Shown one piece after another: positions 23,534 through 55,873 of a DNA stretch of 64,000 bases. The DNA is taken from NCBI GenBank assembly GCA_963716725.1, contig CAVQUB010000005.1:96001-160000 (forward strand), written 5' to 3'. The notes under the pieces are model-generated. The model was not told the origin of the DNA. It was given only the letters and a program-made list of their open reading frames with translations, and made no database searches. Every line of letters begins with the position of its first letter. Position 1 is the stretch's first letter. This DNA is from an uncultured delta proteobacterium. GTDB taxonomy: Bacteria; Myxococcota_A; Polyangia; Polyangiales; Polyangiaceae. The position numbers and the translations under genes are program-made.

Positions 23534-23594
23534 ACGGTAGCGGAGGCTGCGGGCGCGCGCCAGGCAGTCCTGGGCTCTCGAACGCGACCCCGGC

Positions 23595-25115
23595 TCAATC
23601 TCCCAGGGTCTCGCGCACCCGCCGAAGCAGCGCCGTCGCCGTGAACGGCTTCTCGAGGATCTCGATCTCGCCGTATTCGTCCGGCGTCAGCGCGGCGTCG
23701 CGCCGATAGCCGGACATGAAGAGCACGGGCATCGACGCTCCGGCAGCTCGGAGCCGCCGCACCAACTCCGGACCGTCCATGTGCGGCATGACCACGTCGG
23801 TCAGGAGCAGGTCGAAGCCAGCCGGGCCATCGAGGCACAGCGAGAGCGCCTCCTGGCCGTCCGCGGCGCGCTCGACCGCGTAACCTTGCGCGCTCAGCAC
23901 GCGCAGGACCACACCGGCCACGCTGTCGTCGTCCTCCGCCACCAGGATGCGCTCGGTGCCACCGCGGGGCGCTGCCGCTGGCACGCTCTGCCCGGAGCTG
24001 GCGGGCACCTCGTGACAGAGCGGCAAGTAGACCTTGACCGTGGTGCCGTGCCCGAGCGCGCTGTCGATGCGGAGTTTGCCGCCGCTCTGCTTGGCGATGC
24101 CGTACACCGTCGAGAGCCCGAGGCCGGTCCCACGCCCCACCTCCTTGGTGGTGAAGAAGGGATCGATTGCGTGCCGCAGCGTATCCGGTGACATGCCCGA
24201 GCCCGAGTCCGAGACCGTGAGCAGCGCGTAGCGTCCGGCCTCGAGTTGCTCCGAGGCGCCGATGCTCTCGTCGGAGATGGTCACCGGGCAGAGCCGAAGT
24301 TGGACGGTGCCGCCAGTCGGCATCGCGTCGCGAGCGTTGGTCACCAGGTTCACGACGACCTGCTCGACGTGACTGCGCGTGCTGCGCACCGGGAGCGGAG
24401 TCGGATGCGCTTCGACGACCATGCTCACCCGGTCGCCGATCAGGCGACGGAGCAAGGTCTTGATGTCGTGCAGCACCGGCACGATGTCGATGACTTCCGT
24501 CGGCGACTCGTGAGGGCGGCTGAAGAGCAGCAGCTGACGCACCAGGCTCGCACCGCGCTGACCGGCGGCGATCATCTCCTCGACGTAGGCGGAGAGATCC
24601 GGACGATCGCGCAGCTGTCTCTGCAAGAGCTCGCCATTGCCCATGATGGCGACCAAGAGGTTGTTGAAGTCGTGGGCGATGCCGCCCGTGAGCTGACCGA
24701 TGGCCTCCATCTTCTGCGAGTGTCGGAGCTGCTCCTCCAGTCGCTTGCGGTCGGTGATGTCCCGCCACACGACGTGAAGCACCTGCTTGCCCCCGCGTTG
24801 CACGGCGGTGAGCAGCACCTCGACCGGAAACACCTCCCCGTCGAAGCGGCGGTGGTCCCACTCGAAGCGGTGGCTGCCGCGGGCGGAGGCGGCGGCCATC
24901 ATCTCGTTGGCCTTCTCGAAGGAGCTGCGACCGTCGGGCTGCTCGGGCGGCGACAGGTCGGAGGGATGTGCGCGACGCAGGGCTTGCCGGTCGGGACAGC
25001 GCAACATGGTGAGGGCGGCGTCGTTGAACTCCACGAACGACCCGTTCTCGATGATCAGGATGGCGTCCGCCGAGCGCTCGAAGAGCTCGCGGTAGGGATC
25101 GAGGTCGTCGGCCAC
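23595..25115 (-). CDS. PAS-domain hybrid histidine kinase/response regulator (start approximate)
   Basis: 'SQKMEAIGQLTGGIAHDFNN' H-box, 'PFFTTKEVGRGTGLGL', receiver 'DLLLTDVVMP'. Confidence 0.92.
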   Translation of the reverse strand: MADDLDPYRELFERSADAILIIENGSFVEFNDAALTMLRCPDRQALRRAHPSDLSPPEQPDGRSSFEKANEMMAAASARGSHRFEWDHRRFDGEVFPVEVLLTAVQRGGKQVLHVVWRDITDRKRLEEQLRHSQKMEAIGQLTGGIAHDFNNLLVAIMGNGELLQRQLRDRPDLSAYVEEMIAAGQRGASLVRQLLLFSRPHESPTEVIDIVPVLHDIKTLLRRLIGDRVSMVVEAHPTPLPVRSTRSHVEQVVVNLVTNARDAMPTGGTVQLRLCPVTISDESIGASEQLEAGRYALLTVSDSGSGMSPDTLRHAIDPFFTTKEVGRGTGLGLSTVYGIAKQSGGKLRIDSALGHGTTVKVYLPLCHEVPASSGQSVPAAAPRGGTERILVAEDDDSVAGVVLRVLSAQGYAVERAADGQEALSLCLDGPAGFDLLLTDVVMPHMDGPELVRRLRAAGASMPVLFMSGYRRDAALTPDEYGEIEILEKPFTATALLRRVRETLGD

Positions 25116-40224: not shown

Positions 40225-40392
40225 TTGCGAGAAGCCTCGCAGAGTTGGACTTCGAAGTCTCGCGGAGGCCCGAATTCCGGCCGTGGCGGAGCCGAAACGT
40301 CCCACAATGTCTGATCTGTCGGCTTCGCGTAGCCGTTCTTCTTGAAGCAGCGCAGCGCGCGTTCCCCCCCAGTCCTGTCCGTTCAGCGCATG

Positions 40393-40531
40393 TCGCGGAT
40401 CCGGACGTTGTCACACGTGCGATCCGCGGAAGGGGGGTGGTGCGTTGGCGTCGTTCGACGCCAGCAGCATCGCGGTGAACGCGAACGCCAACGTTCGCAC
40501 CGTCTGCCCATGTCGCATCGTCCACCTCCCG
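40393..40531 (-). repeat. Diverged copy of 52489-52622 (RBS and signal-peptide 5' end of the peptidase/RCC1 gene)
   Basis: Direct alignment of 'cggacgttgtcac…gcgttggcgtcgttcga…cccatgtcgcatc.tccacctcccg'. Confidence 0.9.
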
Positions 40532-40562: not shown

Positions 40563-40581
40563 CCCTACGACGTATAGCTAG
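40563..40581 (-). repeat. R1 left part: copy of the 4Fe-4S gene 3' end, split by IS630
   Basis: ccctacgacgtatagctag is identical to 52706-52724. Confidence 0.92.
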
Positions 40582-40609
40582 TACCTCGACGCAGAGGAGT
40601 TGACCGTTT

Positions 40610-41405
40610 TCATGCGGCGGTTCGAACGGCGCGCGGCCGTACGACCGAAGGGTGGGCTCGCCCGAGCTTCTCCCGGGCTCGCTCCAGCGTGAAAAGCCAC
40701 CTGATCCGTGCCTTCTCGCGATTGCGGCGCCGCTCCCACGCCTTGACCTCGGAGACCAGCATCGCTTTGGTCGGGATGCGCCGGTCCAGGCACTGCGACA
40801 CCATGACCCCGATCTCGATCTCGACCATGTTCAGCCAGCTCGCGTGCTTCGGCGTGTAGTGGAACTCAAGTCGACGGAGGATGCGACGCGCCTCGGCGGG
40901 CTCGAGGCTCTCATACAGTGCGGCGTGTGTGTGTGTCGACAGGTTGTCTATCACCACGCGGATCTGGTCCGCCTTCGGATAGTGGTCGTCGACGAGATCG
41001 CGCATGCACTCGGCGAAGTCGCGCGCGGCTCGACGATCGGTGACCTTCGCGCGACGCCACGAACGGTGTGCGTCGACGAACATGAAAACGTTCGCGGTGC
41101 CGTTGCGTACATATTCGTAGTCGAAGCGCGCTGGCCTGCCCGGCTTCGGGGCGACCGGCACACGAGACTCGCCGATGAGTTGTCGCGGCGTCTCGTCGAA
41201 GCAGACCACCGGGCGACTCTCGTCGGGCGCCTCGGCGTAGAGCTCGAGCACGTCTTCCATCCGTGCGACGAATTCGGCGTCGACTTTCGGAATGCACCAC
41301 ATCTTCTTCTGCCACGGTTTCAGCTCGTTTTCCGCGAGTCGGCGGCGGATCGTCTCCGACGAGAGCGACCTGTGCTTGGTCAGGCGCACCATCGCGCCGG
41401 CCAGC
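40610..41405 (-). pseudogene. IS630 transposase, C-terminal DDE part
   Basis: 'VVCFDETP', 'DYEYVRNGT', 'DNLSTH', 'HYTPKHASWLNMVEIE'. Confidence 0.92.
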
Positions 41406-41557
41406 TGTAGGCCGTCACCCTCCGTCGTGATCCCCCGCGGTCGTGGTGTCGGTCTGGGCGCTCGTTGTTTCGGGTGAGCCGGGTTCGGACTCCGGAGAGC
41501 TTCGCCGTTCTTTTTTCCTGAGAGGCTGATCCGCGGAAAGCTGATCGCCGGAGAAGG

Positions 41558-42235
41558 TTGGTCCGTCGCGGTAGCACCCGCACGGACCCGGCCAGCGAAG
41601 GATTGGTTGTCCGTTACGAGACGACCCTCACCAGCGAGCGGTACGTTACCGAGCAGGCGTGGCGGGCCGCAAGTTTGGAGCGGTGCCCGCTGCACCCGGA
41701 GGGCGGCTGCGGTCTCGCGGGGCACGGGAGCTACGGTCGGGTCCGCCCCGTCGGCGTCCGCGTCGCCCGGTTCTGGTGCCCGCGGGCTCGGGTGACTATC
41801 AGCCTTTTGCCTGATTTTCTGGCTTCCCGACTGTCGGGCACGCTCGAGGAGGTCGAGCGGGCCGTCGAGGTGGCCGAGGGCGCCAAGAGTCTGGAGGCGG
41901 TCGCCGAGAAGGTGCGCCCCGCGATCGCAGCGGACGCGGTGACGCTTCCAAGCGCGCTGCGGTGGCTCCGGCGGCGGCGTGTTGCTGTCCACGCGGCGCT
42001 CGTGGCGGCAGTGACGCTGGTGCCGGCGCTCACGGGCTGCCCGGCGACGCTTGGCGCGGTGCGGCAACGACTCGGGGTGTCGGATGCGCTCGTGGCGCTG
42101 CGGTCGGCCGCGGCCATTCACCTGGCCGCCATGCCAGCGCCGGTCGGACTGCGGGCGCGAGGGCGAGCGCGGCAAGCATCGCGAGAGCCGACCCCACACG
42201 AAACGGGGCCGGACCCTCCTCGGCGGGACCGATAG
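41558..42235 (+). CDS. Transposon accessory protein with Cys/His motif (start uncertain)
   Basis: 'CPLH..CGLAGHGSYGR..RFWCP..TISLLPDFL'. Confidence 0.65.
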   Translation: MVRRGSTRTDPASEGLVVRYETTLTSERYVTEQAWRAASLERCPLHPEGGCGLAGHGSYGRVRPVGVRVARFWCPRARVTISLLPDFLASRLSGTLEEVERAVEVAEGAKSLEAVAEKVRPAIAADAVTLPSALRWLRRRRVAVHAALVAAVTLVPALTGCPATLGAVRQRLGVSDALVALRSAAAIHLAAMPAPVGLRARGRARQASREPTPHETGPDPPRRDR

Positions 42236-42286
42236 CGGGTTGGTGTGCCCGGGACGGACCCGGGCCGACACCGAAAGAGAACTCCG

Positions 42287-43690
42287 ATGAGGACACCGAC
42301 CCCCGAAAACGAACGCACGCTCGCTGACGCCGAGCGCAGAAAGCAGATCGCGCTGTTCCGTTATGGCGTGATCGCAGATCTGCTCCACCTCGAGCGCGGT
42401 GCGCGCGGCATGTACGCGAAGCTGCGCGAGAAGGCGGAGAAGGACTGGGAGATCCCCGGAACGCTCCGGCGGAAGGTCCAGGCCGAAACGATCCGCGGAT
42501 GGCTTGCGGACTACCGACGCGGCGGCTTCGACGCCCTTGTCCCGAAGATCCGACGGGACGAGGGCTCGGCTCGCGCCATTCCCCGGGAGATCGCGGATCT
42601 GCTCTGCGAGACGAAAGAGCAGCACGCGGACTTCAGCGTCGGACTCGTCATCGCGCACGTGACGCGCTTCGCGAAGATCCCGGAGGGGGTCACGCTTGCG
42701 CCATCGACGGTGCACCGGATCTTGTCTCGGGCCGGACTCATGCAGAAGAAGCAGGGCGAGCCGACGGCGAAGGACCGCCGACGCTTCGCCTTCGAGAAGG
42801 CGGGCGAACTGTGGATGAGCGACGTGATGCACGGCCCCGCCGTCGCCGTGTCCGGGCGGCAGCGGAAGACGTACCTGCTCGCCGTCATCGACGACGCGAC
42901 ACGGATGGTGCCGTATGCGGCCTTCGCGCTCAGCGAGAACGCCGCGACCCTTCTCAGCGTGCTCGAGCAAGGGATCTGCCGCCGCGGGATCCCCAAGCGG
43001 CTTTACGTCGACAACGGTGCCGCCTTCAAAGCACAGCACCTGGCGCTCGTGTGCGCGAAGCTCGGCATCACCTTGATCCACGCGCGTCCCTACACGCCCC
43101 AGGGAAAAGGAAAGATGGAGCGGTGGTTTCGGACCGTGCGTCTTCAGCTCCTGCCGACGCTCCAGCCCGAGGACAGGCGGAGTCTCGAAGCACTCAACCG
43201 CCGTCTCTGGGCGTGGGTCGAGGGTGAGTATCATCGGAGTCCCCACCGCGGACTCGACGGTGAGACGCCCGCGGATCGCTGGGCGATGCGCTCAGACGAG
43301 GTGCGCCAGTCGTCGAGCGACCTCGCCGATCTGTTTCTCTTCGAGCAGAAGCGCCGTGTGCAGGCCGACCGCACCGTGTCGCTCGACAGCGTGGCCTACG
43401 AAGTGGACGCGATGCTCGTCGGCGAGACCGTCGTCCTTCGCTTCGATCCGGCGCGTCCGCGAGAGACACGTGCCGTCCAGGTCTGGCATCGCGGAAAGCA
43501 GATCCAGATCGCTCGCCGTGTCGACGTCTACGCCAACTGTTTCGTCCGACGCGATCACACGACGAAGGCCCTGCATCCATCTCAGCCCGTGGACGAGCCG
43601 CCCCCCGGCATGCGCTTGAGCGACTTCGACTTCGATGTCGGGGACAACCAGCAGGGCGGCGCTGGCGACGACGAGGGGGACCTCCTCTGA
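42287..43690 (+). CDS. DDE integrase-core (rve) / Mu-like transposase
   Basis: 'LWMSDVMHGP', 'IDDATR', 'YVDNGAAF', 'PYTPQGKGKMERWF'. Confidence 0.92.
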   Translation: MRTPTPENERTLADAERRKQIALFRYGVIADLLHLERGARGMYAKLREKAEKDWEIPGTLRRKVQAETIRGWLADYRRGGFDALVPKIRRDEGSARAIPREIADLLCETKEQHADFSVGLVIAHVTRFAKIPEGVTLAPSTVHRILSRAGLMQKKQGEPTAKDRRRFAFEKAGELWMSDVMHGPAVAVSGRQRKTYLLAVIDDATRMVPYAAFALSENAATLLSVLEQGICRRGIPKRLYVDNGAAFKAQHLALVCAKLGITLIHARPYTPQGKGKMERWFRTVRLQLLPTLQPEDRRSLEALNRRLWAWVEGEYHRSPHRGLDGETPADRWAMRSDEVRQSSSDLADLFLFEQKRRVQADRTVSLDSVAYEVDAMLVGETVVLRFDPARPRETRAVQVWHRGKQIQIARRVDVYANCFVRRDHTTKALHPSQPVDEPPPGMRLSDFDFDVGDNQQGGAGDDEGDLL

Positions 43691-44487
43691 TGTACCGCAA
43701 GCACTTCGGCCTCACCCGCCACCCCTTCGCCAAAAACATCGAGCCCGACGAGCTCTTCGCCTCCGGTGCGCTCCGAGAACTCGACGCCCGGCTCGCCCAT
43801 CTCCTCGACTTGCGCGGCATCGGTGTGGTCACCGGTGAGAGCGGCAGCGGCAAGACCACCGCGTGTCGGAAGATCGTCGCCGGTCTCCACACGGGTCTGC
43901 ACCGCGTCCTCTACGTGTCGCTCACCACCGGCAACGTGATGGATCTCTACAAGACCATCGCCTGGGAGATCGGCCTACCCACCGAGCGCAACCGCGCCGC
44001 ACTGTTCCGGCAGATCCGGACCGAGGTGACGCGGCTCTGCAGCGAGGCCCGGCAGAAACCGATCCTGATCGTGGACGAAGCTCATCACCTCAGGAGCGAC
44101 GTGCTCGAGGACCTGCGCCTGCTCACCAACTACGCGATGGACTCCGACAACCGCCTCTGCCTGGTCCTCGTCGGACACCCGGAACTGCGCCGCCGCCTCG
44201 GCATGGCGGTGCACGAGGCGCTCTCGCAGCGCGTCGTCGTGCGCGCTCACGTCCCGGGTCTTGCCCGTGACGAGCTCGGCCCGTACCTCACGCACCTGCT
44301 CCGACTCGCCGGAACCGAGCTCGAACTCTTCGAGCCCGCAACCCAGGAGGCGATCTTCCAGGCGTCGAACGGCCTGCCCCGGAAGGTGAACCTGCTCGCT
44401 CACCACGCGCTCATGGCCGCCGCGCTCACCAAGAGCAGGACCGTCACGACCGAGCACATCCAGTCCGCCATGGCCGAAGTCACCTGA
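43690..44487 (+). CDS. ExeA-like AAA ATPase (transposition helper)
   Basis: 'MYRKHFGLTRHPF', Walker A GESGSGKT, Walker B 'LIVDEAH'; TGATG coupling to the transposase. Confidence 0.92.
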   Translation: MYRKHFGLTRHPFAKNIEPDELFASGALRELDARLAHLLDLRGIGVVTGESGSGKTTACRKIVAGLHTGLHRVLYVSLTTGNVMDLYKTIAWEIGLPTERNRAALFRQIRTEVTRLCSEARQKPILIVDEAHHLRSDVLEDLRLLTNYAMDSDNRLCLVLVGHPELRRRLGMAVHEALSQRVVVRAHVPGLARDELGPYLTHLLRLAGTELELFEPATQEAIFQASNGLPRKVNLLAHHALMAAALTKSRTVTTEHIQSAMAEVT

Positions 44488-44663
44488 GCCCAGCGCCCGG
44501 CGACGGTCCACAAGGCCCGGCGGAGATCCACGTCTCCGTCGGGCCGCTCCCTTTCTGCCACCACCTCGCCACGCCCACTCGACCACCGCACTCCGGGAAA
44601 CCACCCCGAGGGCATCACGAAAATGCCCGGGATTCGGGCGGGGGAAGAGCGTGGGAAACTACA

Positions 44664-45013
44664 GCCAGCAACGAGAGCGTCCAGCGCGCTCGCCCAGCCG
44701 GCGGCTCCGAGCACGCCGTCGCGATCAGCAACGCTTCCTCCTTCGCCGCGAGCTTGCGCTCGGCGCCGGGTCGAGGTTCCTCGCTGAGCGCCGCCTCCAG
44801 GCCCTCTTCGGCGAAGCGCCGCTTGGTTCGATAGACCGTTGACGTGCCAACGCTGACGTTTGCGGCGATGGTCGCGTCGCCAGAGCCGCCTGCAGCTGCC
44901 AGCAGGATCTGAGCTCGCTTCAGTCTGCGAACGCGCTCCTTGCCGGCCTGGATCATGCCCCGAAGCAGTTCGCGCTCCTCCGACGTCAACGTGATGCGGT
45001 ACCGTATGTTCAT
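44664..45013 (-). pseudogene. IS630 transposase, N-terminal HTH part
   Basis: 'RAQILLAA…TVYRTKRRF…ACSEPPAGRARWTLSLLA'. Confidence 0.9.
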
Positions 45014-45051
45014 GGTGGTTCCTGCAGCCCATTGATCATGAGAGTGCTCTC

Positions 45052-45339
45052 TTGTCGATCCCCCCCTCCAAGTCGCGGTTCACGGAAAAGCAGGGCCAGT
45101 ACCTTGCCTTCATCCACACCTACGGCTTGCTCAACCGCCGCTCGCCGGCCGAGGCCGACATGGAGAACTACTTCGGAGTGACGGCCCCGTCCGTCCATCG
45201 CATGGTCGTCGAACTGGAGCGGCGCGGACTGATCCGTCGGGTGCCGCGGCAGCCCCGAAGCATCGAGGTCTGCTTACCTGCCGCGGAAATTCCGGCGCTA
45301 CGCTCGCAATCGATCGAATCCTCTGCGTCGAGGTACTAG
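45052..45339 (+). CDS. LexA-like winged-helix DNA-binding protein (IS passenger)
   Basis: 'FTEKQGQYLAFI..Y..PAEADM..YFGVTAPSVHRMVVELERRGLI.R.P..PRSI'; no peptidase domain. Confidence 0.75.
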   Translation: MSIPPSKSRFTEKQGQYLAFIHTYGLLNRRSPAEADMENYFGVTAPSVHRMVVELERRGLIRRVPRQPRSIEVCLPAAEIPALRSQSIESSASRY

Positions 45340-45389
45340 TGTTCTCGAGCAGGATCACGTTCGTCCTGCTGCGCGTCTCGCCGGCGCTC
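45336..45389 (-). repeat. R1 right part: copy of the 4Fe-4S gene 3' end
   Basis: Encodes SAGETRSRTNVILLENT with three synonymous changes relative to 52721-52774. Confidence 0.95.
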
Positions 45390-45603
45390 TGATGCTGCCC
45401 CCATCCGCGCGTCCTCGGCCGCTCCACCCCTTCGGGTATGCCCCTCCGGGCACTTTCAAGGATCGTCGCGAAGCGCGTTGCGGCCTGCGGCCGCTCGACT
45501 TCCCCCAAAGCCGTGCTCGCAGGCAGCGCGAGCGGCGCGGCCGTGAATTGCGCTGACTGACTCTTCGCGCTGCCTGCTGCGCGTGGCAGGGGGAAGTGGC
45601 GCG
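45390..45603. repeat. E1: conserved palindromic element
   Basis: tgatgctgcccccatccg…acttccccc(45498-45506)…gggggaagt(45589-45597); has an extra ~55-nt insert in the first hairpin. Confidence 0.9.
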
Positions 45604-45606
45604 CTC

Positions 45607-46178
45607 GCGTCCGGTGATGTTGTCGCTGGATCGATGCGTTGTCTCAACGGCTCGGCGGCGGAACCTCAGCGTCTGGGGGCGAGTGCCCACTTGATCGGCT
45701 TCGAGACCGTCGGCTTCGAACACGCCCTCCACCTCGTCCGTGCAGTTCGTCCGGTTGCTGCCGGCACCCAACGGCGCATGGTTGGTCTCCCGCTACGCAG
45801 GCACCACGTCTTCGGAGCAGCCGCCCATCATGTTGCTTCGTCTCGACGCAGGTGGCGCGCCCCTGGGGGCTCCAGCGCCCGTCGCGCACAATTCGTTCTA
45901 CGGCCTGCCGGGGTTGGCGAGCCTTGGGGAACGCGTCGCAGTCGCCGTAACCGATCCCAACGATCCCCTCGGCACGACCTTCGAGATCCGCATTGTCAAC
46001 GCGGCGCACCACCTTGCATCAACGCAACTATCAACCGAGCAACACCTTCGCCGAACCCCGCCTCAGCCTGATGCCATCGCCGGACCAGGACCAGTTGCTA
46101 CTCGGTTGGTCGTCGCCGGCGCCCGGCAACAGCGTATTGGCGGCGCGCGTCGCAAGGTTTTGCGTGCCGGGACCTTAG
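45607..46178 (+). pseudogene. Frameshifted 3' fragment of an exported beta-rich protein gene
   Basis: Coding-like segments in successive frames ending 'VARFCVPGP*'; no start before E1. Confidence 0.45.
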
Positions 46179-46199
46179 GGGCCTCCCCTCGCCTCGTCC

Positions 46200-46814
46200 T
46201 CAGGCCGACGAGCCAAGGTTCAGCTGAGCCAGTGCTTCTAGGACCAACGTGCGCCTTGATGCCGCTTTGATTCGGGCGGCCATCTTTCGGGCAAGTGCGA
46301 AACTGAAGCCGCGGGGGAACTCAAGCTCCGGCAACGCGCGAAACTTTCGCGACCGAGCGGGCCGGAGGTAGAGAAAGTCCACCAGCGCTTTCTCCGCCAC
46401 AGCCACCTTCGCGCCCAAACGTGGGTCCGTGTCAAAACCGAAAAAGAAGTGCGGCGCCAGTGTGTGAAACGAGACAGCCGCTATTGGCGTCTTCACGCGG
46501 CGCGACGGGCCCAGGGTCGCGGCGTAGACGATCGCGGGGATCTGCTCGATCAATCCGTGATGATGGAGCGCCGACTGGAATGACACATAGCTTGGAGTGG
46601 GTGCGCTGAGTCGTTCAGGCACGGCGAACGCGTGCAAGCGGTCCCGAAACGCCCACCGGCCTCTGTGTAGACGAACCAAATGTCCGGCTTCGGCAAGACG
46701 TCGAAGAACGACCGACACTTGCTTCGGCGGGCGAGCAAGGCAGGCCGCCGCGTCGCTCGTGGAAAACGCGGGACTCAGCCTTTCGAGCAGCCGCAGCGCT
46801 TCAATAGAGGTCAC
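46200..46814 (-). CDS. abiEi: Type IV TA antitoxin, AbiEi family
   Basis: N-terminal wHTH; 'YVSFQSALHHHGLIEQIP', 'AEKALVDFLY'; GTGA coupling. Confidence 0.85.
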   Translation of the reverse strand: MTSIEALRLLERLSPAFSTSDAAACLARPPKQVSVVLRRLAEAGHLVRLHRGRWAFRDRLHAFAVPERLSAPTPSYVSFQSALHHHGLIEQIPAIVYAATLGPSRRVKTPIAAVSFHTLAPHFFFGFDTDPRLGAKVAVAEKALVDFLYLRPARSRKFRALPELEFPRGFSFALARKMAARIKAASRRTLVLEALAQLNLGSSA

Positions 46815-47566
46815 GTTGCAGGCCGCTCCAGTGCGGTGACGACGCGCAATACCAACTGATCCCATTCGGCCGAACTAGCCGGCACGTTTGGTTCGTCCTC
46901 CGGAAGAAATGCCCGCACTTGTCCGAGATAGTCATCGAAGCTCACCGTCATCGCATTTGCCACAGCTCCTTCGAAGTCCCCGCGACCGCTCTCAGAAACG
47001 TCCGGCGGCCACTGTCCCGCGCGGAGGAGCAAATCGAGATCAAATACGTCGCGCGCCTGGGTTTCGACACGGCGCGCGAGTGCTCGTGCTTTCTGCACGA
47101 ATGCGGTCGTCGACGTGTAGTGAGAAAGGAATACCGGGGCAAGGCTGTAGCGCCCGATGAGCATCGAGTCGACTGGATCGAACGACGTGCCTTGGTCGAC
47201 GCCGCGTCGGCTAAACTCGATCTTCGTGCGCAAGCTGGCCGCGGGCGCGCTGACGTCGAGTGCAATCTTCCAGCGCTGGGTGGTGTCGGTCTGTTTGGGG
47301 GTCGTGATCTGGCCCACCGTTAGCCCATGCGTCGCCAAGGCGAGGCGGAACGAGCGGGATCCCAAGAGGCGTGAGACCTTGTTTGTCAGCGTGCTCTTTT
47401 CGATGGTCTGGACATCGATATCCAAATCCTCGGAGTATCGGGGGCTCTTGAAAAAGAAGCGCAGGTTGCAGCCGCCCTTCACCGCGTACAGCTGCTTGTC
47501 GAGCTGTCGCCCAAGTTCGGCGAGGAAAACTAGATGAAAGCGCTCAACCGCCTGCCGATCTCGCAT
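46811..47566 (-). CDS. abiEii: Type IV TA toxin, AbiEii nucleotidyltransferase
   Basis: 'KGGCNLRFFFKSPRYSEDLD', 'KIEFS', 'QARDVFDL'. Confidence 0.88.
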   Translation of the reverse strand: MRDRQAVERFHLVFLAELGRQLDKQLYAVKGGCNLRFFFKSPRYSEDLDIDVQTIEKSTLTNKVSRLLGSRSFRLALATHGLTVGQITTPKQTDTTQRWKIALDVSAPAASLRTKIEFSRRGVDQGTSFDPVDSMLIGRYSLAPVFLSHYTSTTAFVQKARALARRVETQARDVFDLDLLLRAGQWPPDVSESGRGDFEGAVANAMTVSFDDYLGQVRAFLPEDEPNVPASSAEWDQLVLRVVTALERPAT

Positions 47567-47742
47567 TCCGCCATAATACAACGAATCAACACCCGAGTTG
47601 ATTCATACACTTATGGATCGTGCGATCCAGGATGACTCTAGCCAGCTTTGTGCAGTCTTTTCCGACACTTAACCTCCGTTGCGTCGCTGGCGGCGCGGGC
47701 ATATCGTTTGACGTAAAATGACATGCCCGCCAGGCTGGTTGA

Positions 47743-48036
47743 GTGATCCAGGGATTTTGCGATGCAGCTACCCAGGACATCCACGACGGCAGAACCACGA
47801 AACCGGCTAGAAACCGGCTCCCCGGCAGCCTGTGGCGGGTCGCAACGCGGAAGCTGGACCAACTGCATCGCGTGCTCGAACTGGCCGAGCTTCGGGTGCC
47901 GCCCGGTAACGACCTGGAGGCGTTGAAGGGGGACCGCGAGGGCCAGCACTCGATACGGATCAACGATCAGTACGGCATTTGCTTCGAATGGACCGGCGAC
48001 GGCCCGGATGCCGTCGAGATCGTCGACTACCACTGA
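47743..48036 (+). CDS. higB: HigB/RelE-like toxin
   Basis: 'LRVPPGNDLEALKGDREGQHSIRINDQYGICFEW…VEIVDYH'. Confidence 0.93.
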   Translation: MIQGFCDAATQDIHDGRTTKPARNRLPGSLWRVATRKLDQLHRVLELAELRVPPGNDLEALKGDREGQHSIRINDQYGICFEWTGDGPDAVEIVDYH

Positions 48037-48058
48037 GCCGAACCAGCTGAGAAACATC

Positions 48059-48385
48059 ATGACCAGAGAAAAGAAAAGCGGAGTCGGTCTTCCCACCCTT
48101 CGTCCACCGACGTCGCCGGGTGAGATGCTGCGTGAAGAGTTCCTCGTGCCGCTTCAACTCACCCAGAGCGAACTGGCCGAGCGCATGGGTGTGCCGGTGG
48201 GGCGTGTGAATCAGATCCTACAAGAGAAGCGCGCCGTGACCGCGGATACCGCGGTGCGCTTGAGCCGGGTGCTCGGCATGAGCGCGGAGTTTTGGCTCGG
48301 ACTCCAGACAGATTGGGATCTCTGGCGCGCCCGGCGTGAAGTGAATTTGAAGGCACTGAAGCCCATCCCCGTCAAGGCCGGATAG
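48059..48385 (+). CDS. higA: HigA antitoxin
   Basis: 'PGEMLREEFL..QSELAERM…TADTAVRL…AEFWLGLQ'. Confidence 0.93.
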   Translation: MTREKKSGVGLPTLRPPTSPGEMLREEFLVPLQLTQSELAERMGVPVGRVNQILQEKRAVTADTAVRLSRVLGMSAEFWLGLQTDWDLWRARREVNLKALKPIPVKAG

Positions 48386-48405
48386 CGAAGAGTGTGGCGT
48401 TCCCC

Positions 48406-48459
48406 CCCTACGACGTATAGCTGGTGTTCTCGAGCAGGATCACGTTCGTCCTGCTGCGG
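48406..48459 (-). repeat. R2: copy of the 4Fe-4S gene 3' end (15 bp shorter)
   Basis: Encodes RSRTNVILLENTSYTS* with three synonymous changes. Confidence 0.95.
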
Positions 48460-48619
48460 TGATGCTGCCCCCATCCGCGCGTCCTCGGCCGCTCTGCGGC
48501 CTCCGGCCGCTCGACTTCCCCCAAAGCCGTGCTCGCAGGCCGCGCGCGCGGCGCGGCGATGAACCGCGCTGCTCGACTCTTCGCGCTGCCTGCTGCGCGC
48601 GGCCGGGGGAAGTGGCGCG
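48460..48619. repeat. E2: conserved palindromic element
   Basis: Same 5' motif; stem acttccccc(48514-48522)/gggggaagt(48605-48613); similarity to E3 continues to 48663. Confidence 0.92.
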
Positions 48620-48702
48620 TCCCGCGTCCCGCCGGCTGCTGCTCTCGTCACCGCTCCGGCGGCAGAGCCATCGGGGCGGAGGGCCGGCACCGTGTGACTC
48701 GT

Positions 48703-49368
48703 TCATTCCTTGCTCGTGAGCTTCAGCATGCCGTTTTCGGCGAGCTCTTTCCGGGCCGCCTCGAACTTCCCCCAGTCGGCGCGGAGCACGATTCGGGCCT
48801 GGTGAGCCGGCGCCTCGGCGGTGGTGTCGCCCAGCGCGTCGCGTAGGATCACGATCACCGAATCGCCCGGCCGGACGCCGCCTCCCGCGAGGCCCTCGAC
48901 CCACCATCTCGAGCCCGGTGAGTGCCCAGCATCAGCGGTGGAGACTTGCCGTTCCACGCGCACCCGGTACTTCGGGTGCTTGCGCGGTTGAGCCACCACG
49001 CGCTCCACGACCGCGCGCACGATGACTGACGACAAGTGAATGTCGAAGTGCATGGCCAACCGTTGCCTCAGCTTTTCGACGAAAGCCGATGAGGCATCGA
49101 TGAGCGCGGGGTCGTCCACGCGCGAACCCTCGCCTTTCAGCCAGATGTGAAAGACCCGCGAGTGGGAGCAGCGGTCAGGTGCCGGGCAGGTGTCGTGCTC
49201 GACCTGGGTCGTGCGAAACTCGGCGCGGATACGCTGGAGCTCCGCGATTTCTCCGCGATCGAGTCGCGCGACGACGGCGGGGAACTCGGGGTAAGTGGCG
49301 GCCGAAATCAGGGCACGGCCATCGCGCATGACGATGGTTCGGTAGGGAGGAACGCCATAGCGAAGCAT
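48703..49368 (-). CDS. Hypothetical protein
   Basis: TGATG overlap with the upstream ORF; could be one frameshifted gene with it. Confidence 0.5.
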   Translation of the reverse strand: MLRYGVPPYRTIVMRDGRALISAATYPEFPAVVARLDRGEIAELQRIRAEFRTTQVEHDTCPAPDRCSHSRVFHIWLKGEGSRVDDPALIDASSAFVEKLRQRLAMHFDIHLSSVIVRAVVERVVAQPRKHPKYRVRVERQVSTADAGHSPGSRWWVEGLAGGGVRPGDSVIVILRDALGDTTAEAPAHQARIVLRADWGKFEAARKELAENGMLKLTSKE

Positions 49369-49883
49369 CACGGCGTCCCGTGCTGCGAGCACCTGCCCTC
49401 GCTGCTCCAATTCGAGGCGCTGCCAATGACCCAGGGCCCAGAGCCACAGTCCTCGGTCGAGCCGGCGAGGCGCGTCTTCGCGGGATACCAGGAACTCCAG
49501 TCGAGTGCGAAATCGAGCGGCGGCTCCCCATCCGAGAACAGGAGTTCGTCGACGTCGATGCCGACTCGTTGGCAGCCCGAGCAGAAGTGGGAGCGCCCGT
49601 CGTCGCTCTTCAGCTCCGCGGAGCCGATGACTGCGACCCAGCTGGCCAGCGTGAGCACCTCGACGGGCGGGCGCCGCGAGGGGGTGGCCATGGGAAGGCA
49701 GCCGTAGAACGCTCCCGGAGGTAACTCGGGTTGGCGCAGAGGAGGCGGTGCCGGTGCTGCGTTCGCAAGCGCAGGGGGCTCATCAGGGGGCTCATCAGGC
49801 GGCGCTTCGCAGGCCGGTGAGCCGGTGCACAGGATTGCCCAGGCGACCACCAGGCTGGTCCGGATGCCGGCCGTACCCGCCAT
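49368..49883 (-). CDS. Hypothetical exported protein
   Basis: Hydrophobic N-terminus, Pro-rich linker, Cys-containing domain. Confidence 0.5.
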   Translation of the reverse strand: MAGTAGIRTSLVVAWAILCTGSPACEAPPDEPPDEPPALANAAPAPPPLRQPELPPGAFYGCLPMATPSRRPPVEVLTLASWVAVIGSAELKSDDGRSHFCSGCQRVGIDVDELLFSDGEPPLDFALDWSSWYPAKTRLAGSTEDCGSGPWVIGSASNWSSEGRCSQHGTP

Positions 49884-50096
49884 CTCGGCTGAAGCTTAGC
49901 GCGCCGCGCGGCTCCGTGCTGCCGCGGCCGATTCAGAACCCCGAGCCCGGCTGCTTCAGGAGCTCGAGTCTCTCGGCCGTCGAGGCGCGGCCGAGCGTCG
50001 CGTCCCGGTGCGGGAAGCGACCGACCCCTGGAGAAACGCCGAGGGGCGAGCGAAATACGATCGCAGCGTGCGCGACGCCGTCTCGAGCCACGCCCT

Positions 50097-50165
50097 CCCT
50101 ACGACGTATAGCTAGTGTTCTCGAGCAGGATCACGTTGGTCCGACTGCGGGTCTCGCCGGCGCTC
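50097..50165 (-). repeat. R3: copy of the 4Fe-4S gene 3' end
   Basis: 69 bp with one synonymous mismatch to 52706-52774. Confidence 0.97.
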
Positions 50166-50325
50166 TGATGCTGCCCCCATCCGCGCGTCCTCGGCCGCTC
50201 TGCGGCCTCCGGGCGCTCGACTTCCCCCAAAGCCGTGCTCGCAGGCAGCGCGAGCGGCGCGGCGATGAACCGCGTTGCTCGACTCCTCGCGCGGCCTGCT
50301 GCGCGCGGCAGGGGGAAGTGCGCGT
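50166..50325. repeat. E3: conserved palindromic element
   Basis: Stem acttccccc(50220-50228)/gggggaagt(50311-50319) with nested stems. Confidence 0.92.
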
Positions 50326-50352
50326 CACGCGTGGCGCCGGCCTCTGCTCTCG

Positions 50353-52612
50353 TCACCGCGCCGGCGGCGTCGACTCGCCGTAGGTGTTGCTGCCCCAGCA
50401 CGCGATCGAGTGGTCGGCCCGGAGCGCGCAGGCGTGGCCGAACCCGACGTCCATTTGAACGAAGCGCCCCGCGGGCGGACGGATCAGCTCTTCGTTCTGG
50501 ACGCCGACGCAAGTGAGGGTACCGTCGAGCTCGATGACGCAGGCGTTGTACCGCCCGCCGGCATGCACGGAGCGGGCGAGGCGGCCGTGGAGGTTGCCGA
50601 AGGATTCCTCGAACCCCCAACACGCGACGACGTTGTCGATGTTGCGGGCGCAGGAGAAATGGCTGCCGCTGGTGATCTGGACGAAGGTGCCGGCCGGGGG
50701 ATTGGCCTGGCCGTTGTAGTTTGCCCCCCAGCACGCGAGCGTGCCGTCGGCGCGGATGGCGCAGGCGTGCATACCGCCCACGGCCACGTCCTGGAACTTG
50801 CCCGGGGGTGGGTCGTCCAGTCCATGGCCCTGGTTGCCCCAGCACGCGAGCGTCCCGTCGAGGCGGACGGCGCAGGCTGTCATCCCCAACGTCGAAACCG
50901 TCGAGTAGTGGCCGGGCGGAAACGCGCCGACGGAGTTCATCTGGGCGGTCGGCCAGCAGCTCAAGGTGCCGTCCCGCTCGAGGCCGCACGCCCGCAACGA
51001 AACATCAGGGTAGCCGGGCGTCAGTTGAGCCGTATCCTCGTTCAGGTAGCTGCCAGCCCAGAACGAGAACGCCGCGTGGGTGCCAAGGTCCTGGTAGCCG
51101 GGGTGCGGCGGGCTGTTGGCGGGGTCGCTCAGCCACTCCTGCTGCATGTCGTTCATGGCCGCCATCGCGAAGCAATCCGAGAGGCCCTCGTAGATCGCCT
51201 TCTCCTCCGTCTTGTCGGCGGGGCGTGGCAAAACGTCTTCCCACAGCGAGTGCCCGAGCTCGTGCGCCAGGACCATCGGATCGGCTGAGGTCTTGAAGCG
51301 CTCGCCGCCAACGCCGACCTGGATGACGCCGTTGTCCGTCCCGAGGGACGTGTTCAGCCTGGTGAACCAGGCCTGCTCCGCGTACCCCCGCTGCCACCCG
51401 ACGTAGCGCACCGGGATGTTGCTGCCCACCCGCTTCGTGTAGCCGTTCTTCTTGAAGTAGCGCAGCGCGCGCTCCCCCCAGTATTGCCCGTTCACCGCGT
51501 GTCGGATCAGGGGGTCGTTGCTGATCCAGGAGTTGTCGGCGTCGCGGAACACGTCAGCCTGATCGAACTTCGGATCGACCAGCGGGCTGTCGCGGAACGT
51601 CACGACATCCTGCGAGCCCACGAGGCGGTCCGGTGTGCCCCACTCGTTGCACGACACCAGGGCCCAGGGGTTCTGCTCTTTCGGGTAGTAGGTCGTCGAG
51701 AATCGGCGGAGGCCCAGATCGGTGTCCAGCCCTTCGCCCTCGTTGTAGAGGCAGAGCCAGAGTGGGATGAGCGCGTTCTGAAACGCCGCTTGCCCCGCGG
51801 TGATGGCCTTCCCGATGGGCTTGGTGGAGCCTGACGACGAGTGCGACGCCAGCTGGATGATCCGACTGATCTGGCCCGACGCGGCATCGACCCACACGTC
51901 CGCGACTTGCTGGGCGACCACGTCGTCGCTCGTGAGGCGCACGGCGTACACGAGCTGATCGTTCCCGCGACGCACCTCGGTGGCTCTGCGGGCGCCGCCG
52001 AACATCGCGGGCTCGCGCACCACCAGGAACGGCGGCGGATACTCGCGGGCGGTGAGCGGGATCGACGAAAGCTCTGGCGCCACCTCGAGCGCGCGCGCCA
52101 CCGCCTCGTCGGGTGCGATCTCTTCCTCGGGTGGCGCGAGATCGGGTTGCGCGGTGCTCACGATCGAGGCGATGGAGATCCCGTCGCCCGCGATGTTCAG
52201 CGCAATGCGCGCGCCGCGCACGAGCGCACCGCGGTGGCGTTGTTCCAGCGCGACGACGCGCCAGTTCGCTTCTCCGGGCAACGCTTCGAGCGTATCGACG
52301 TCGGGCGTGAGCCCGAGCAATGTCAAGACCGCGGGCGACGTCGCCAGATCGATCACGCGCGCTCTTCGCTCGGCGTAAACGCGCCGCGCAATCGCCGCCG
52401 GCATCGGACGCTCACGTGCGCTCGCGAGCCAGAACTTCGCGGTGCGGCTCAGCCCCGGGATCGGGAACGTCCGCTCCCACTCGATGATGCGGACGTTGTC
52501 ACCCGTGCGATCTGCAGGGGGGGGGGGGCAAAGCGTTGGCGTCGTTCGAGGCCAGCAGCATCGCGGTGAGCGCGAACGCCAACGTTCGTACCGTCTGCCC
52601 ATGTCGCATCAT
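50353..52612 (-). CDS. Secreted M4/M36-like zinc metallopeptidase with C-terminal RCC1-like repeats; signal peptide out of frame at a G12 tract
   Basis: 'LAHELGH' with downstream 'YEGLSD'; repeats 'HACAIRADGTLACWG'; signal MRHGQTVRTLAFALTAMLLASNDANA is in frame only with G11 or G14. Confidence 0.75.
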
Positions 52613-52705
52613 CCACCTCCCGAGGGCAACGGTACGCGGCGCGATCGGTCCGCGCAATGTGCGCGTTGTCGCACGATGTGGGCCCGCGCGTTCCGAGCGC
52701 GACCA

Positions 52706-52774
52706 CCCTACGACGTATAGCTAGTGTTCTCGAGCAGGATCACGTTCGTCCGACTGCGGGTCTCGCCGGCGCTC
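52706..52774 (-). repeat. R4: native 3' end of the 4Fe-4S gene (putative attachment site)
   Basis: In-frame end …VT-SAGETRSRTNVILLENTSYTS*. Confidence 0.95.
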
Positions 52775-54730
52775 GTCACGTAGACGGCGGGCTTGTCGAC
52801 GATCGGGCAGACCTTCTCGCAGGCGCCGCAGCCGATGCACAGCGAAGGATCGACGTGCGGGCGTTGCACCTTGATGGTGGTCATCTTGGCGTGACCGCCG
52901 CCCTCCTCGTAGTGCGCCTCGCGCTTCGGGACCTCGACGTCTTCGGCCCAGATCGCCTTGGGTGAGGTCGGGCAGAACTCTTCGCAGACGATGCAGGGCG
53001 TGGCCATGGCCCAGGGCAGGCAGCGCCCTTGGTCGTACATGGCGGTCCCGATGCTGATGGGCTTCTGACCGATGCCCATCTTCTGCTTCTCGTCGATCTT
53101 CTGGATGGCGCCGGTCGGACAGACCTGGCCGCAGAGCACGCAGCTGAACTCGCAGTAGCCGATGCGCGGGATCAGGATCGGCGTCCACAGTCCCTCGAGC
53201 CCGGCCTCGAAGAACGCGGGGTGCAGCGCGTTGTTCGGGCAGACCTTCATGCACTCGGCGCAGCGGATGCAGCGCTCGAGGAAGTCGCGCTCGTCCACCG
53301 AACCCGGCGGACGGATCACCTTCTCGCTGTAGGCCCGGTCGGGCCAGTTGGCGATGCGCATCGCGGGGATGGCCACCGCGCCGGCGGCGGTCGAGGCCAG
53401 GATCGTGCGTCGCTGCAGGTCCGGCTTGACGAGCTCGCTCTTGCGGTTCGGCAGGAACTTGAACTTGATGACGTCTTCGGGGCAGGCGGCCTCGCAGTTG
53501 AAGCACATGAGGCACTCGTCTTGCTGGTGCTTGACGCCGCCTTGCGGGCTGTCGGCGCCTTGGCAGTGCACCAGGCACAGGTTGCAGTCGGTGCACTTCG
53601 AGTGGTCCTTCTCCATGCCGAAGATGGCGAAGCGCGAGAGCACGCCCAAGAACGAGCCGAGCGGGACACAGCGCCCGGCACCAGAAGCGCGGCATGATGC
53701 GGTTCATGAACAAGATCGCGACCAGCGCGAAGACGATGAACCAGGTCTGGTGGAAGTAGGCCTGGTTCGCGGTCCAGACGGTCTGGGCGAAGAAGTCCTG
53801 GGTCGCGTCGCTGGCCGTCTGCACGGCGCGCAGGTTGCTGTCGGCGGCGACGGTGGCGCCGCGGATGCCCAGGTATTGCAGCGCGGGCACGACTCCCAGG
53901 CCGATGGCACGGACCGCGATGCAGATGGGATCGAGCAGCCCACCGATGGCGCTGCCCGCCGCCGCCGCGCCGAGGAAGCCCCACATCAGGTAGAACTTGC
54001 CGCGCTGCCAGCCCTTGGTCTTGTTGGAGTCGACGCGCTTGCTGCCCTTGAGATAGCGACTCGGGAAGATCCAGCCGAAAAAGTGATGCAGGGTGCCGAA
54101 GGGGCAGATCCAACCGCAGAACACGCGACCGAAGAGCAGCGTCAGCGCGACGATCACCAGCGACCACGCCAGGCCGCGGTAGACGGAGTGGGTGGAGAGG
54201 AGCGTCATCGCGGCGACGAAGGGATCCGCCATCAGGAAGGCTTCGACTGGGAGCGGCATCCGGATCGCTTTGTCCGCGCCGGCGGCGAAGCTGCCGCGGA
54301 AGGCCGTCGCGAACAGGAACCAGAAGAAGACGCCGAGGAAGACGATCTGCGAGACGACCCGCGCCTTGGCGAGGAATCGAATCACGCCGCGGGCGGGGAT
54401 GCCCGAGCCCGGCAGCTTGCGCGGGCCGAAGCGGCGCTTCATCCAGCGCCGGAAGCGCGACGGGGGCGGGAGCTTCTTCGGAGCGGGCGGGGAGCCGGCG
54501 CTCGAGCCCCCGGCCGAGCCGTTGCCTGCGCTCGTGGCGGGCGTCGTCGAGTCCGTCGCCGCGCTGGCGTTCACCGCGGACGAGCAGCCACCGCCCTGGG
54601 AACCGCAACCACACTGCTTCGGTGCCGCCGGCGCGGGCACCGCATCGAGCGGCGCTACCTTCCCAGGAGCCCCCAGCCACGGGATCGGGCGGGGCAGATC
54701 GGGCGTTCCGGAGTGGGTGGGTGGGTGCAC
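52708..54730 (-). CDS. Membrane polyferredoxin (NapH/MauN-like + NapG/MauM-like 4Fe-4S); frameshift near 53664
   Basis: 'GRVFCGWICPFG', 'FWCRALCP', multiple CxxCxxCxxxCP; an extra base in a GGG run breaks CPLGSFLG. Confidence 0.88.
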
Positions 54731-55723
54731 TCAGACCTCCACGCGAGGGACCGTCTCCCAGCTCGCAGTGCCGAGTCCTCGCTCCTCCCCCAGCGCGAGG
54801 TACTTCACGTTCGACGGCTTCTCGCCAATCAGCGTGGCGCCGTAGGCGTCGACCGCGACCTGATCGAGGCTGGCGATGACCTGGTGCATATCCTTGGCGT
54901 CGTCGATGTTGCCGCCCTGTGGACCGTTGCGCATCAGGACCCGCGTCGCGTCCAGGACGGTGAGGGTCGGTCGCATGAAGGTCGCGAGGTCGGCGATGGA
55001 CACGTCGATGTTCTGGTGCAGCCGGTTGCGCCGCCCGCCGAGCAGGCCGTACCAGTTCTTCATGGCGCCGGTGTACTTCGACAGGTTGTGGTGCTTCGCC
55101 ACCGGCACGTTGATGACCTTGTCGGCGTTCACCAGTGGTGTGTACACTGGCCAGAGGTCGAGCACGTCGCCTTTCATGCGGATGTCGCGGAAGCGATGGG
55201 CGGCCGGCAGGATCACCGTCGCACCCACCGCGTGCGCCGCGCGCCAGATCCCCGAGCGCTGGAAGCAGCGGTTCGGTTCGTTGCACGAAGCGTCGGTGAC
55301 AACGACCCGGGCCGCGCCCGCATCGAGCACCAGCTTGACCAGCTCGGCGACCACCAGCGGGTTGGTGTTGGCCGCGTGCACGGGCATGCGATCCCAGCCG
55401 ATGTTGGGCTTGATAGCCACCACGTCGCCCCGCGAAATGAAGCGATCCATTCCGCCCAGCGCCTCGACCGCCTTGCGGGTGAGCTCGGCGGCGTCCGTCG
55501 AGCTCTTGGCGATGGCCAGGATCGGCGCCGCGCTGCCGGCCGCCTTCGTCCGGAAGTCGCGGACCTGCCGCTCCGCGTCGAGGCGCGTCAGGTCGATCCC
55601 GCCCGGATCCCAGACCAGCTTGGCGGCCAATGCCGAGGCGCCGAGGGCGGCTCCCGCCGCCCCGACCCGCCCGAGGGCGTCGCGGCGCGAAATCGTCGAC
55701 ATGGCCTGGCTGATATGGGCCAA
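54731..55723 (-). CDS. DUF362 domain protein with Tat-like signal
   Basis: 'SRRDAL', 'VAIKPNIGW', 'INVPVAKHH', 'MKNWYG', 'DQVAVDA'. Confidence 0.85.
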   Translation of the reverse strand: MAHISQAMSTISRRDALGRVGAAGAALGASALAAKLVWDPGGIDLTRLDAERQVRDFRTKAAGSAAPILAIAKSSTDAAELTRKAVEALGGMDRFISRGDVVAIKPNIGWDRMPVHAANTNPLVVAELVKLVLDAGAARVVVTDASCNEPNRCFQRSGIWRAAHAVGATVILPAAHRFRDIRMKGDVLDLWPVYTPLVNADKVINVPVAKHHNLSKYTGAMKNWYGLLGGRRNRLHQNIDVSIADLATFMRPTLTVLDATRVLMRNGPQGGNIDDAKDMHQVIASLDQVAVDAYGATLIGEKPSNVKYLALGEERGLGTASWETVPRVEV

Positions 55724-55873
55724 GGCTCACGTAACGTCAAATTTGGCGCCGCGGAAGATAACGTAACGTAATGACTTTTCTGATTTCAGGCCTTCCAGCT
55801 TGCTCGCCCCGGGAGCCCTCCCGTGCTGGAGCTTGAACGTCGGCGGCTCTGGCGCTAGGGTCCGCGCCCCGCC

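Follow-up and report, generated by a model that had tools for sequence, protein, structure and literature searches.

The window analysed here is a 64,000-nt stretch of DNA (G000:C5:96001-160000) from the 799-kb contig C5 of an uncultured member of the Polyangiaceae, whose genome, G000, is a metagenome bin of 7.9 Mb in 35 contigs (84% complete, 3.9% contamination). All coordinates below are window positions unless a contig is named. On its minus strand the window carries a polyferredoxin gene whose 3′ end is present as four tandem copies, R1 to R4, all on that strand, as determined by repeat finding, a four-way alignment and in-frame extraction. R4 is the end of the live gene, and each of the displaced copies R3, R2 and R1 stands directly behind a conserved structured element of ~175 nt, which we call E. 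The four copies are real. The array consists of the following features.

52708..54730, minus strand: target gene, encoding a NapG-like polyferredoxin fused to a NapH-like membrane part (matches below cut-offs to Pfam Fer4_5 and to NCBIfam NapH/NapG)
52708-52773, minus strand: R4, the live gene end, 21 codons and TAG
50166-50340, minus strand: E_A, whose 3′ end (GGGGCAG + CATCA) adjoins R3
50099-50164, minus strand: R3, displaced end, 21 codons and TAG
48460-48640, minus strand: E_B, 94% identical to E_A, adjoining R2
48408-48458, minus strand: R2, displaced end, 16 codons and TAG, the first 15 nt missing at the junction
45391-45620, minus strand: E_C, 88-89% identical to E_A and E_B, adjoining R1
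45336-45388, minus strand: first part of R1, the initial 17 codons and two bases of codon 18, cut by an insertion sequence (IS)
40566-40582, minus strand: remainder of R1, the final codons, the stop and the same few post-stop bases as R4

Along the strand of the gene, the array runs from the gene with R4 through an RCC1-like gene to E_A and R3, through open reading frames (ORFs) of unknown function to E_B and R2, and through HigBA and AbiE to E_C and the split R1, beyond which lies an RCC1-type remnant. The 3′ end of every E (GGGGCAG followed by ~5 nt) contacts the first base of its R copy. The E_A/R3 and E_C/R1 junctions are identical and the R2 junction is offset by 15 nt; the alignment thus bears out an earlier, sequence-only reading of this DNA, which had noted that R2 lacks 15 nt there. 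A correction to that reading is that R1 does not continue in place to ...SYTS. Past ...ENTS, R1 enters the inverted repeat of an IS630-family element, and it ends abruptly because this element inserted in the CTAG of codons 17-18.

The three E copies of the array are 88-94% alike, and E_A is 90% identical to a copy in the related genome G002 and 89% identical to one on contig C10 of G000. E_C contains a 54-nt insertion (45425-45478), a small repeat resembling repetitive extragenic palindromes (REP) or miniature inverted-repeat transposable elements, with ~25 partial copies on several contigs. The predicted fold of E is a long imperfect hairpin and a short hairpin (z-score -2.2 on this strand and -4.1 on the other). 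Rfam 15 gave no gathering-score match in the window, with chance-level hits around E_B and the DNA that follows R3 (cargo B, below; E-value 0.3-3). A coding function for E was considered and rejected, as the reading frame that passes through E stays open for R1 and R3 and not for R2.

Five sites vary among R1-R4. Codon 5 is ACG in R1 and ACC in R3 and R4; codons 7 and 8 are AGC and AGG in R1 and R2 and AGT and CGG in R3 and R4; ACC at codon 9 is exclusive to R3, and ACC at codon 17 is exclusive to R2. All five differences are synonymous, as the sequence-only reading had stated. The synonymous share of possible single-base changes in the 21 codons is 0.25-0.30 (transition bias 1-4), and the probability of five synonymous changes out of five under neutrality, which that reading had left to be computed, is 0.0011-0.0025. 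Extra copies of the polyferredoxin gene end were present only in G000 among 41 genomes searched, G000 included; matches were found in 20, and the other 19 have one copy each. G002 and G012 contain a stray 24-27-nt match elsewhere in addition to their single gene-end copy.

The same signature was found at other loci. In G000, 8 E copies directly precede DNA that recurs 0.9-7.2 kb upstream: the three in the window, one at the end of an Rhs core on contig C10, two behind ftsZ, and one each at C13:82137 and C34:5780. Three further E-like matches in this genome are weak. The ftsZ gene (G000:C1:273572-286560; named by 91% identity over 444 aa to the FtsZ of G002) is followed by two displaced copies of its last ~20 codons, each behind E, and a group II intron (Rfam group-II-D1D4-3, 78.9 bits) interrupts the second of these E copies within the descending arm of its long hairpin. 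At G000:C13:81235-82483 a 344-nt repeat lies on both sides of a DUF559 gene and E, and at G000:C34:2056-7581 a 70-nt repeat is followed by ~1.8 kb of a colinear, diverged, 5′-truncated gene copy, bounded by E. In other genomes, the signature occurs in G001 (three end copies of an IgGFc-binding-type gene), on contig C3 of G002 and on contig C42 of G005 (Rhs). Within arrays the junction points vary, being 15 nt apart in the window and ~10 nt apart at ftsZ. E itself was found in five of six genus-mates and, at an E-value <= 0.001, in 23 of 61 related genomes searched (G000 counted). The window also holds a gene of the family whose end is stacked in G001 (IgGFc_binding; 21611-23686, minus strand), with no adjoining E in the window.

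In G001, 10 and 11 of 33 codons distinguish the live end from the two displaced ends, all by synonymous changes, and a single codon separates the displaced ends from each other. At ftsZ the displaced and live ends are separated by 3 synonymous and 0 non-synonymous changes (21 codons), and at the Rhs core end by 15 synonymous and 5 non-synonymous changes (61 codons). The 5/5 count here, together with the 11/0 and 3/0 counts in G001 and at ftsZ, supports the proposal of the sequence-only reading that each copy was once a working gene end. Judged by their codons, the displaced copies look like former working ends, more clearly so outside the window than in it. Divergence of this kind must have built up under selection on each copy, in different lineages or at different times.

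The DNA between the gene ends, which we refer to as cargo, comprises the following features together with the IS elements and the remnant at R1.

50353..52602, minus strand: cargo A, gene for an RCC1-repeat protein of 749 aa (Pfam RCC1_2)
48641..50092: cargo B, ORFs without a family match
45621..48401: cargo C, GC 62%
48008-48385, plus strand: HigA (cargo C)
47743-48036, plus strand: HigB (cargo C)
46811-47581, minus strand: AbiEii (cargo C)
46200-46865, minus strand: AbiEi (cargo C)
40583..45335: IS630-family element in R1, with 18-nt inverted repeats and TA duplicated in CTAG
41406-44663: nested 3.26-kb IS splitting the IS630-family element, with an rve transposase, an AAA_22 ATPase and a 6-bp duplication
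40322..40531, minus strand: RCC1-type gene remnant beyond R1, its first 39 codons and a 74-nt piece, 82-89% like cargo A

The cargos are unrelated between units. The gene in cargo A is single copy in G000 and has 41-65% identical homologs at other loci in all six genus-mates, where no E was seen beside them in the flanks examined. Cargos B and C were not found in the six genus-mates except for pieces of up to 150 nt, and in three other genera short pieces alone were recovered (up to 325 nt, 67-82% identity). The GC content of cargo C is 62% versus 67.8% for the genome. The initial ~45 nt of cargo B are similar to the DNA past R1, and its final ~60 nt match unit A in holding the last codons, stop and spacer of an RCC1-type gene. 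The units appear to have been acquired separately, a conclusion that these data support. The sequence-only reading had proposed serial horizontal acquisition with 3′-end replacement; the unrelated cargos, the GC content of cargo C, the foreignness of cargos B and C to the genus-mates and the divergence of E speak for it, and the search for a native donor allele, described below, does not. Its ordering, with R1 the oldest copy, agrees with the IS nested in R1, with the small repeat carried by E_C and with the position of E_C as the most diverged element. The nested IS is present in 9 copies in the genome and has ~8-fold higher depth in public runs. Taken as a whole, the earlier interpretation was partly supported, being largely right but incomplete: it had neither picked out E as the junction common to all units nor noticed the IS that splits R1.

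We favor, with a probability of roughly 0.6, a serial insertion of E-terminated cassettes that carry a replacement gene end, are anchored by homology and left R1 as the oldest copy. One chromosomal gene would have received three successive insertions at its 3′ end. Every arriving unit would consist of the last ~50-70 nt of the gene with its stop, accessory genes, and E at the far end; the incoming end would become fused to the gene and the resident end would be shifted downstream, directly behind E, so that the gene would be intact every time. The youngest unit would be the RCC1-like one next to the gene, and the oldest the one with two toxin-antitoxin pairs next to R1. We infer that the unit could be a circle, made by joining the 3′ tip of E to a site within the donor's gene copy, and that the circle would enter by one homologous crossover within the common gene end. 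If entry were by homologous crossover, an integrase would not be needed. An arrangement X-cargo-E-X with unequal copies of X is the outcome of a single crossover between a resident X and a circle of X-cargo-E, and the circle model would explain both the presence of E beside truncated copies of quite different genes and the variable junction points. The sole special step would be the making of the joint between the E tip and a point inside the donor gene. The gene ends would have been donated by different strains; because lineage-specific codons are common to all four copies, any such donors should be very close kin.

Several observations weigh against this account. Only two of the five changes necessarily fall on branches of already displaced copies (P ~0.06-0.09), and the single-locus statistic is therefore weaker than 0.25^5 suggests. 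TAT for Tyr occurs in all four R copies and ACT for Thr-17 in three of the four, and neither occurs among six genus-mates; lineage-specific codons shared in this way also fit local duplication or gene conversion. The sequence-only reading took the variants for alleles from different strains or times, but the full codon combination of none of the four R copies occurs as a native allele in the 6 genus-mates or in 21 metagenome orthologous ends (each single within the stretch examined), and AGT-7, CGG-8 and ACT-17 were not found elsewhere among the compared ends. Parts or flanks of an RCC1-type gene are present in unit A, in unit B and in the DNA past R1, which is expected if one ancestral unit was copied locally. 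Contigs from public runs break at the E and R repeats and none spans an E/R junction; these contigs, which end at repeats, revealed neither a circle nor an excision product nor a strain with fewer units. In other genera, 34 of 42 testable E-like copies are without a duplicated flank and 8 have a flank that recurs upstream, so E is not always tied to displacement. Finally, none of the 14 matches to the IS91-family Y2 transposase (Y2_Tnp) in the genome lies in the window, and no IS91-type target tetranucleotide (GTTC/CTTG-type) was present at the junctions examined.

The shared codons, the RCC1-type remnants and the small number of changes forced into displaced copies would be accounted for by a local origin, as would the identity of the E_A/R3 and E_C/R1 junctions. 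An ancestral segment (gene end, RCC1-type gene and E) would have been tandemly duplicated, perhaps by template switching at the E hairpin; the inner genes would later have been replaced, and the synonymous pattern would reflect changes in the live end together with gene conversion. However, E_C is no nearer to E_A and E_B than are copies at another locus or in another species, and cargos B and C have no relation to cargo A and are foreign to the genus-mates. The states of codons 9 and 17, compared with outgroup alleles, do not fit a simple linear history in place, and the live end in G001 is 11 synonymous sites away in 33 codons, too many for in-place drift beside a pair of displaced ends that are 99% identical. 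We therefore consider a local origin unlikely.

The array is a product of metagenome assembly, and the breaking of short-read contigs at every E and R, so that E/R is never spanned, is what would be seen if strain variants of one site had been strung together. Against this artefact, E joined to a 5′-truncated R is not expected in any single-unit strain, and the same layout is found again at other loci and in further assemblies, one of which is in 5 contigs. In public run X1, contigs connect R1 with the IS, R2 with cargo C, and R3 with cargo B and part of E_B; contigs from run X5, which comes from an independent study, contain pieces of all three cargos with no differences and span R4. Contigs from the runs also join cargo A to R4. 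Because no contig spans E/R, support for the tandem order comes from the assembly and from other assemblies that show this architecture. An assembly artefact is, on these grounds, highly improbable.

Direct repeats including the gene 3′ end flank each unit, with a conserved arm-like element beside the repeat, and site-specific accretion is known to form similar arrays at tRNA genes and at protein-gene 3′ ends. By analogy with arrays of integrative and conjugative elements (ICEs) and cis-mobilizable elements (CIMEs), the units could be integrase-less relatives of an integrative element whose recombinase is encoded elsewhere, with E and R as the attachment site. None of the 19 tyrosine recombinase matches in the genome is on contig C5, no serine recombinase (Resolvase) match was found in the 84%-complete genome, no recombinase turned up among the window ORFs scanned, and there is none within ~55 kb of the arrays on contigs C1 and C10. 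In addition, E joins unrelated genes (polyferredoxin, ftsZ, Rhs, IgGFc-binding type) without a common core, and the junction points vary. The lack of a nearby recombinase, the unrelated targets and the variable junctions together argue against site-specific integration, and we regard this explanation as quite improbable. A simple target-site duplication was also rejected, as the flanking copies differ (83-98% identity) and range in length from 51 to 344 nt or more. A diversity-generating retroelement was rejected because the differences are not adenine-specific and Pfam detected no reverse transcriptase among the window ORFs scanned.

For the cassette model, the best guess for cutting or joining at the E tip is a HUH rolling-circle enzyme that would act in trans. 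The two subterminal imperfect hairpins of E and its conserved tail are reminiscent of the ends of HUH rolling-circle elements. E-like copies precede a Y2 transposase gene by 0.2-3.5 kb at four loci. It is possible, but doubtful, that E is the cis-acting terminus of an undescribed, enzyme-less class of Polyangiaceae cassettes, which would be served by an enzyme in trans, perhaps an IS91-type HUH transposase, that would cut at the E tip and connect it to a site within an upstream gene, and whose circles would enter any genome sharing that gene by a single homologous crossover. Separately, regions with IS91-family transposases at G000:C8:414000-424000 and C13:110000-131000 contain tandem partial duplications of ~1.14 kb. 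The genome has two Y1_Tnp matches, neither beside E, and no TnpB-type match. The nearer Y1 match, of IS200/IS605 type or like the REP-associated tyrosine transposases (RAYTs), is at G000:C5:165574-165909 in contig coordinates, 5.6 kb past the end of the window. An arrangement in which E would be the scaffold and R the guide of a TnpB-like nuclease was rejected, given the absence of a TnpB-type match in the genome and the fact that R4 would be self-targeted.

A DUF559 gene lies ~300 nt from E, reading away from it, at three loci in G000 (C10, C13:81460 and C34:5094) and at one in G002. These genes would fit nuclease-driven homing, in which E belongs to a selfish cassette whose DUF559-type endonuclease cleaves naive gene ends, so that repair copies the cassette in, the silently recoded end that it carries being resistant; the units in the window would then be decayed, nuclease-less descendants. 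None of the 10 DUF559 matches lies in the window, however, and no nuclease family was found in the window cargo. R4 and R3 are one base apart, so recoding would give little protection. Homing is thus very improbable as the origin of this array.

Outside the arrays, a compact form of E (~100 nt) is widespread across Polyangiaceae assemblies. The two-hairpin fold of the family is kept by compensatory changes, 8 of 24 predicted pairs being altered on both sides among 22 copies; ~10 nt of the tail are conserved, and the length of the G-run covaries with that of the C-run in the first stem. Compact copies are often located 2-12 nt beyond the 3′ end of a tRNA-Ser gene, in convergent orientation, and tRNA-Ser was present at 13 of 14 loci checked, in several genera. 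Pfam detected no integrase among 102 ORFs neighboring compact copies, and Rfam detected tRNAs alone in five loci with compact E-like copies. Copies adjacent to tRNA-Ser in other Polyangiaceae include loci L078, L083, L093, L095, L098, L099, L124, L131, L140 and L148; at L096, L132 and L142 an 18-nt tRNA 3′ fragment lies between E and the tRNA. E-like hairpins directly past the stop of the polyferredoxin ortholog in G002 and G004 were weak profile matches (E = 5.1 and 0.17) and were not used. A literature search for such a repeat in Sorangium or Polyangiaceae gave nothing relevant among the matches listed.

Displacement of C-terminal parts and orphan modules have reportedly been described for Rhs and contact-dependent growth inhibition (CDI) toxin genes (Jackson et al. 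2009, Koskiniemi et al. 2014). As in those systems, 5′-truncated copies of the 3′ part of an intact gene have accumulated serially behind it, separated by other genes and with no integrase, and two E arrays (G000 C10 and G005 C42) lie within Rhs genes. In contrast, the piece repeated in the window is not a junction before a variable toxin domain but the invariant terminal stretch (16-21 codons) of a housekeeping-type redox gene. The displaced pieces encode the same peptide and not alternative toxin domains with immunity genes; it is the whole downstream genes that vary, and E stands at every junction. In Vibrio cholerae, new type VI secretion system (T6SS) effector-immunity modules enter beside a conserved gene and displace their predecessors downstream, according to the accessible portion of the source (PMC5361080), which proposes homology-facilitated illegitimate recombination and compares the arrays with integrons. 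That portion mentions no conserved cis element at the junction, and the targets it describes are T6SS clusters only (PMC5361080).

The array resembles an integron in that promoter-less gene units stand in a row, an imperfect hairpin site closes each of them, and the newest unit is the one nearest the entry point. It differs in that the contig has no integron integrase, the units begin with a copy of the target-gene end, and E, at ~175 nt, lacks attC core motifs at its ends by eye. Tandem accretion of ICEs and CIMEs at a gene 3′ end is exemplified by ICESt1/ICESt3 at fda. There, too, direct repeats with the gene end flank the units, the gene stays whole and some members are without a recombinase; the window differs in having no recombinase nearby, one element family at unrelated targets, no constant core and varying junctions. 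In the ISCR1 model, the 3′ conserved segment (3′-CS) is duplicated and circles are rescued by homologous recombination. Resemblances to IS91/ISCR elements are a constant end with apparent subterminal imperfect palindromes beside a putative cleavage site, a variable other end, carried neighbor genes and a flank duplicated after homologous rescue. Unlike these elements, the units have no transposase in or beside them and no IS91 tetranucleotides, and at the four loci of co-occurrence E is upstream of the Y2 genes. IS91 ends and one-ended transposition are treated in the accessible part of PMC13181058. The array is also unlike IS200/IS605 elements, palindrome-associated transposable elements (PATEs) and REP/RAYT systems, for there is no Y1 transposase beside E and no TnpB-type match, and unlike a homing-endonuclease cassette, for there is no nuclease ORF in the window cargo. 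The combination of a repeated, invariant end of a housekeeping-type gene, varying whole downstream genes and one structured element that marks all junctions sets the array apart from these known systems.

If the serial-insertion reading is true, accessory genes (toxin-antitoxin pairs, nucleases and surface proteins) can be gained at conserved gene ends without an integrase, with the conserved structured element E as the mark, and the rows of displaced ends are a record of the order of acquisition and of past alleles of the target gene. The ftsZ arrays show that the process tolerates essential genes. If the cassette-class reading also holds, accessory genes stack behind conserved genes, even ftsZ, which stay unbroken, and leave a dated row of former ends. 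The E tip would offer a handle on how arrays of end replacement or C-terminal displacement begin; the Rhs and T6SS cases have so far been ascribed loosely to illegitimate recombination.

Orthologs of the target gene were found in 38 of the 61 related genomes, as single ORFs of 585-1166 aa. In the window the reading frame shifts at a CCC run at ~53663-53665, as seen in a frame plot of GC content at third codon positions, and contigs from three public runs have one base fewer at this run. Given the one-frame orthologs and these contigs, the frame switch may be an assembly error or a strain-specific frameshift. Upstream of the target gene lies the following gene.

54731-55726, minus strand: DUF362 gene

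In the genus-mate G006 (73% complete), just a 3′ fragment of the polyferredoxin gene was found (G006:C17:422947-423099, locus L062). This fragment contains an in-frame TAG, its tail is different and longer, and it could represent a displaced or decayed end.

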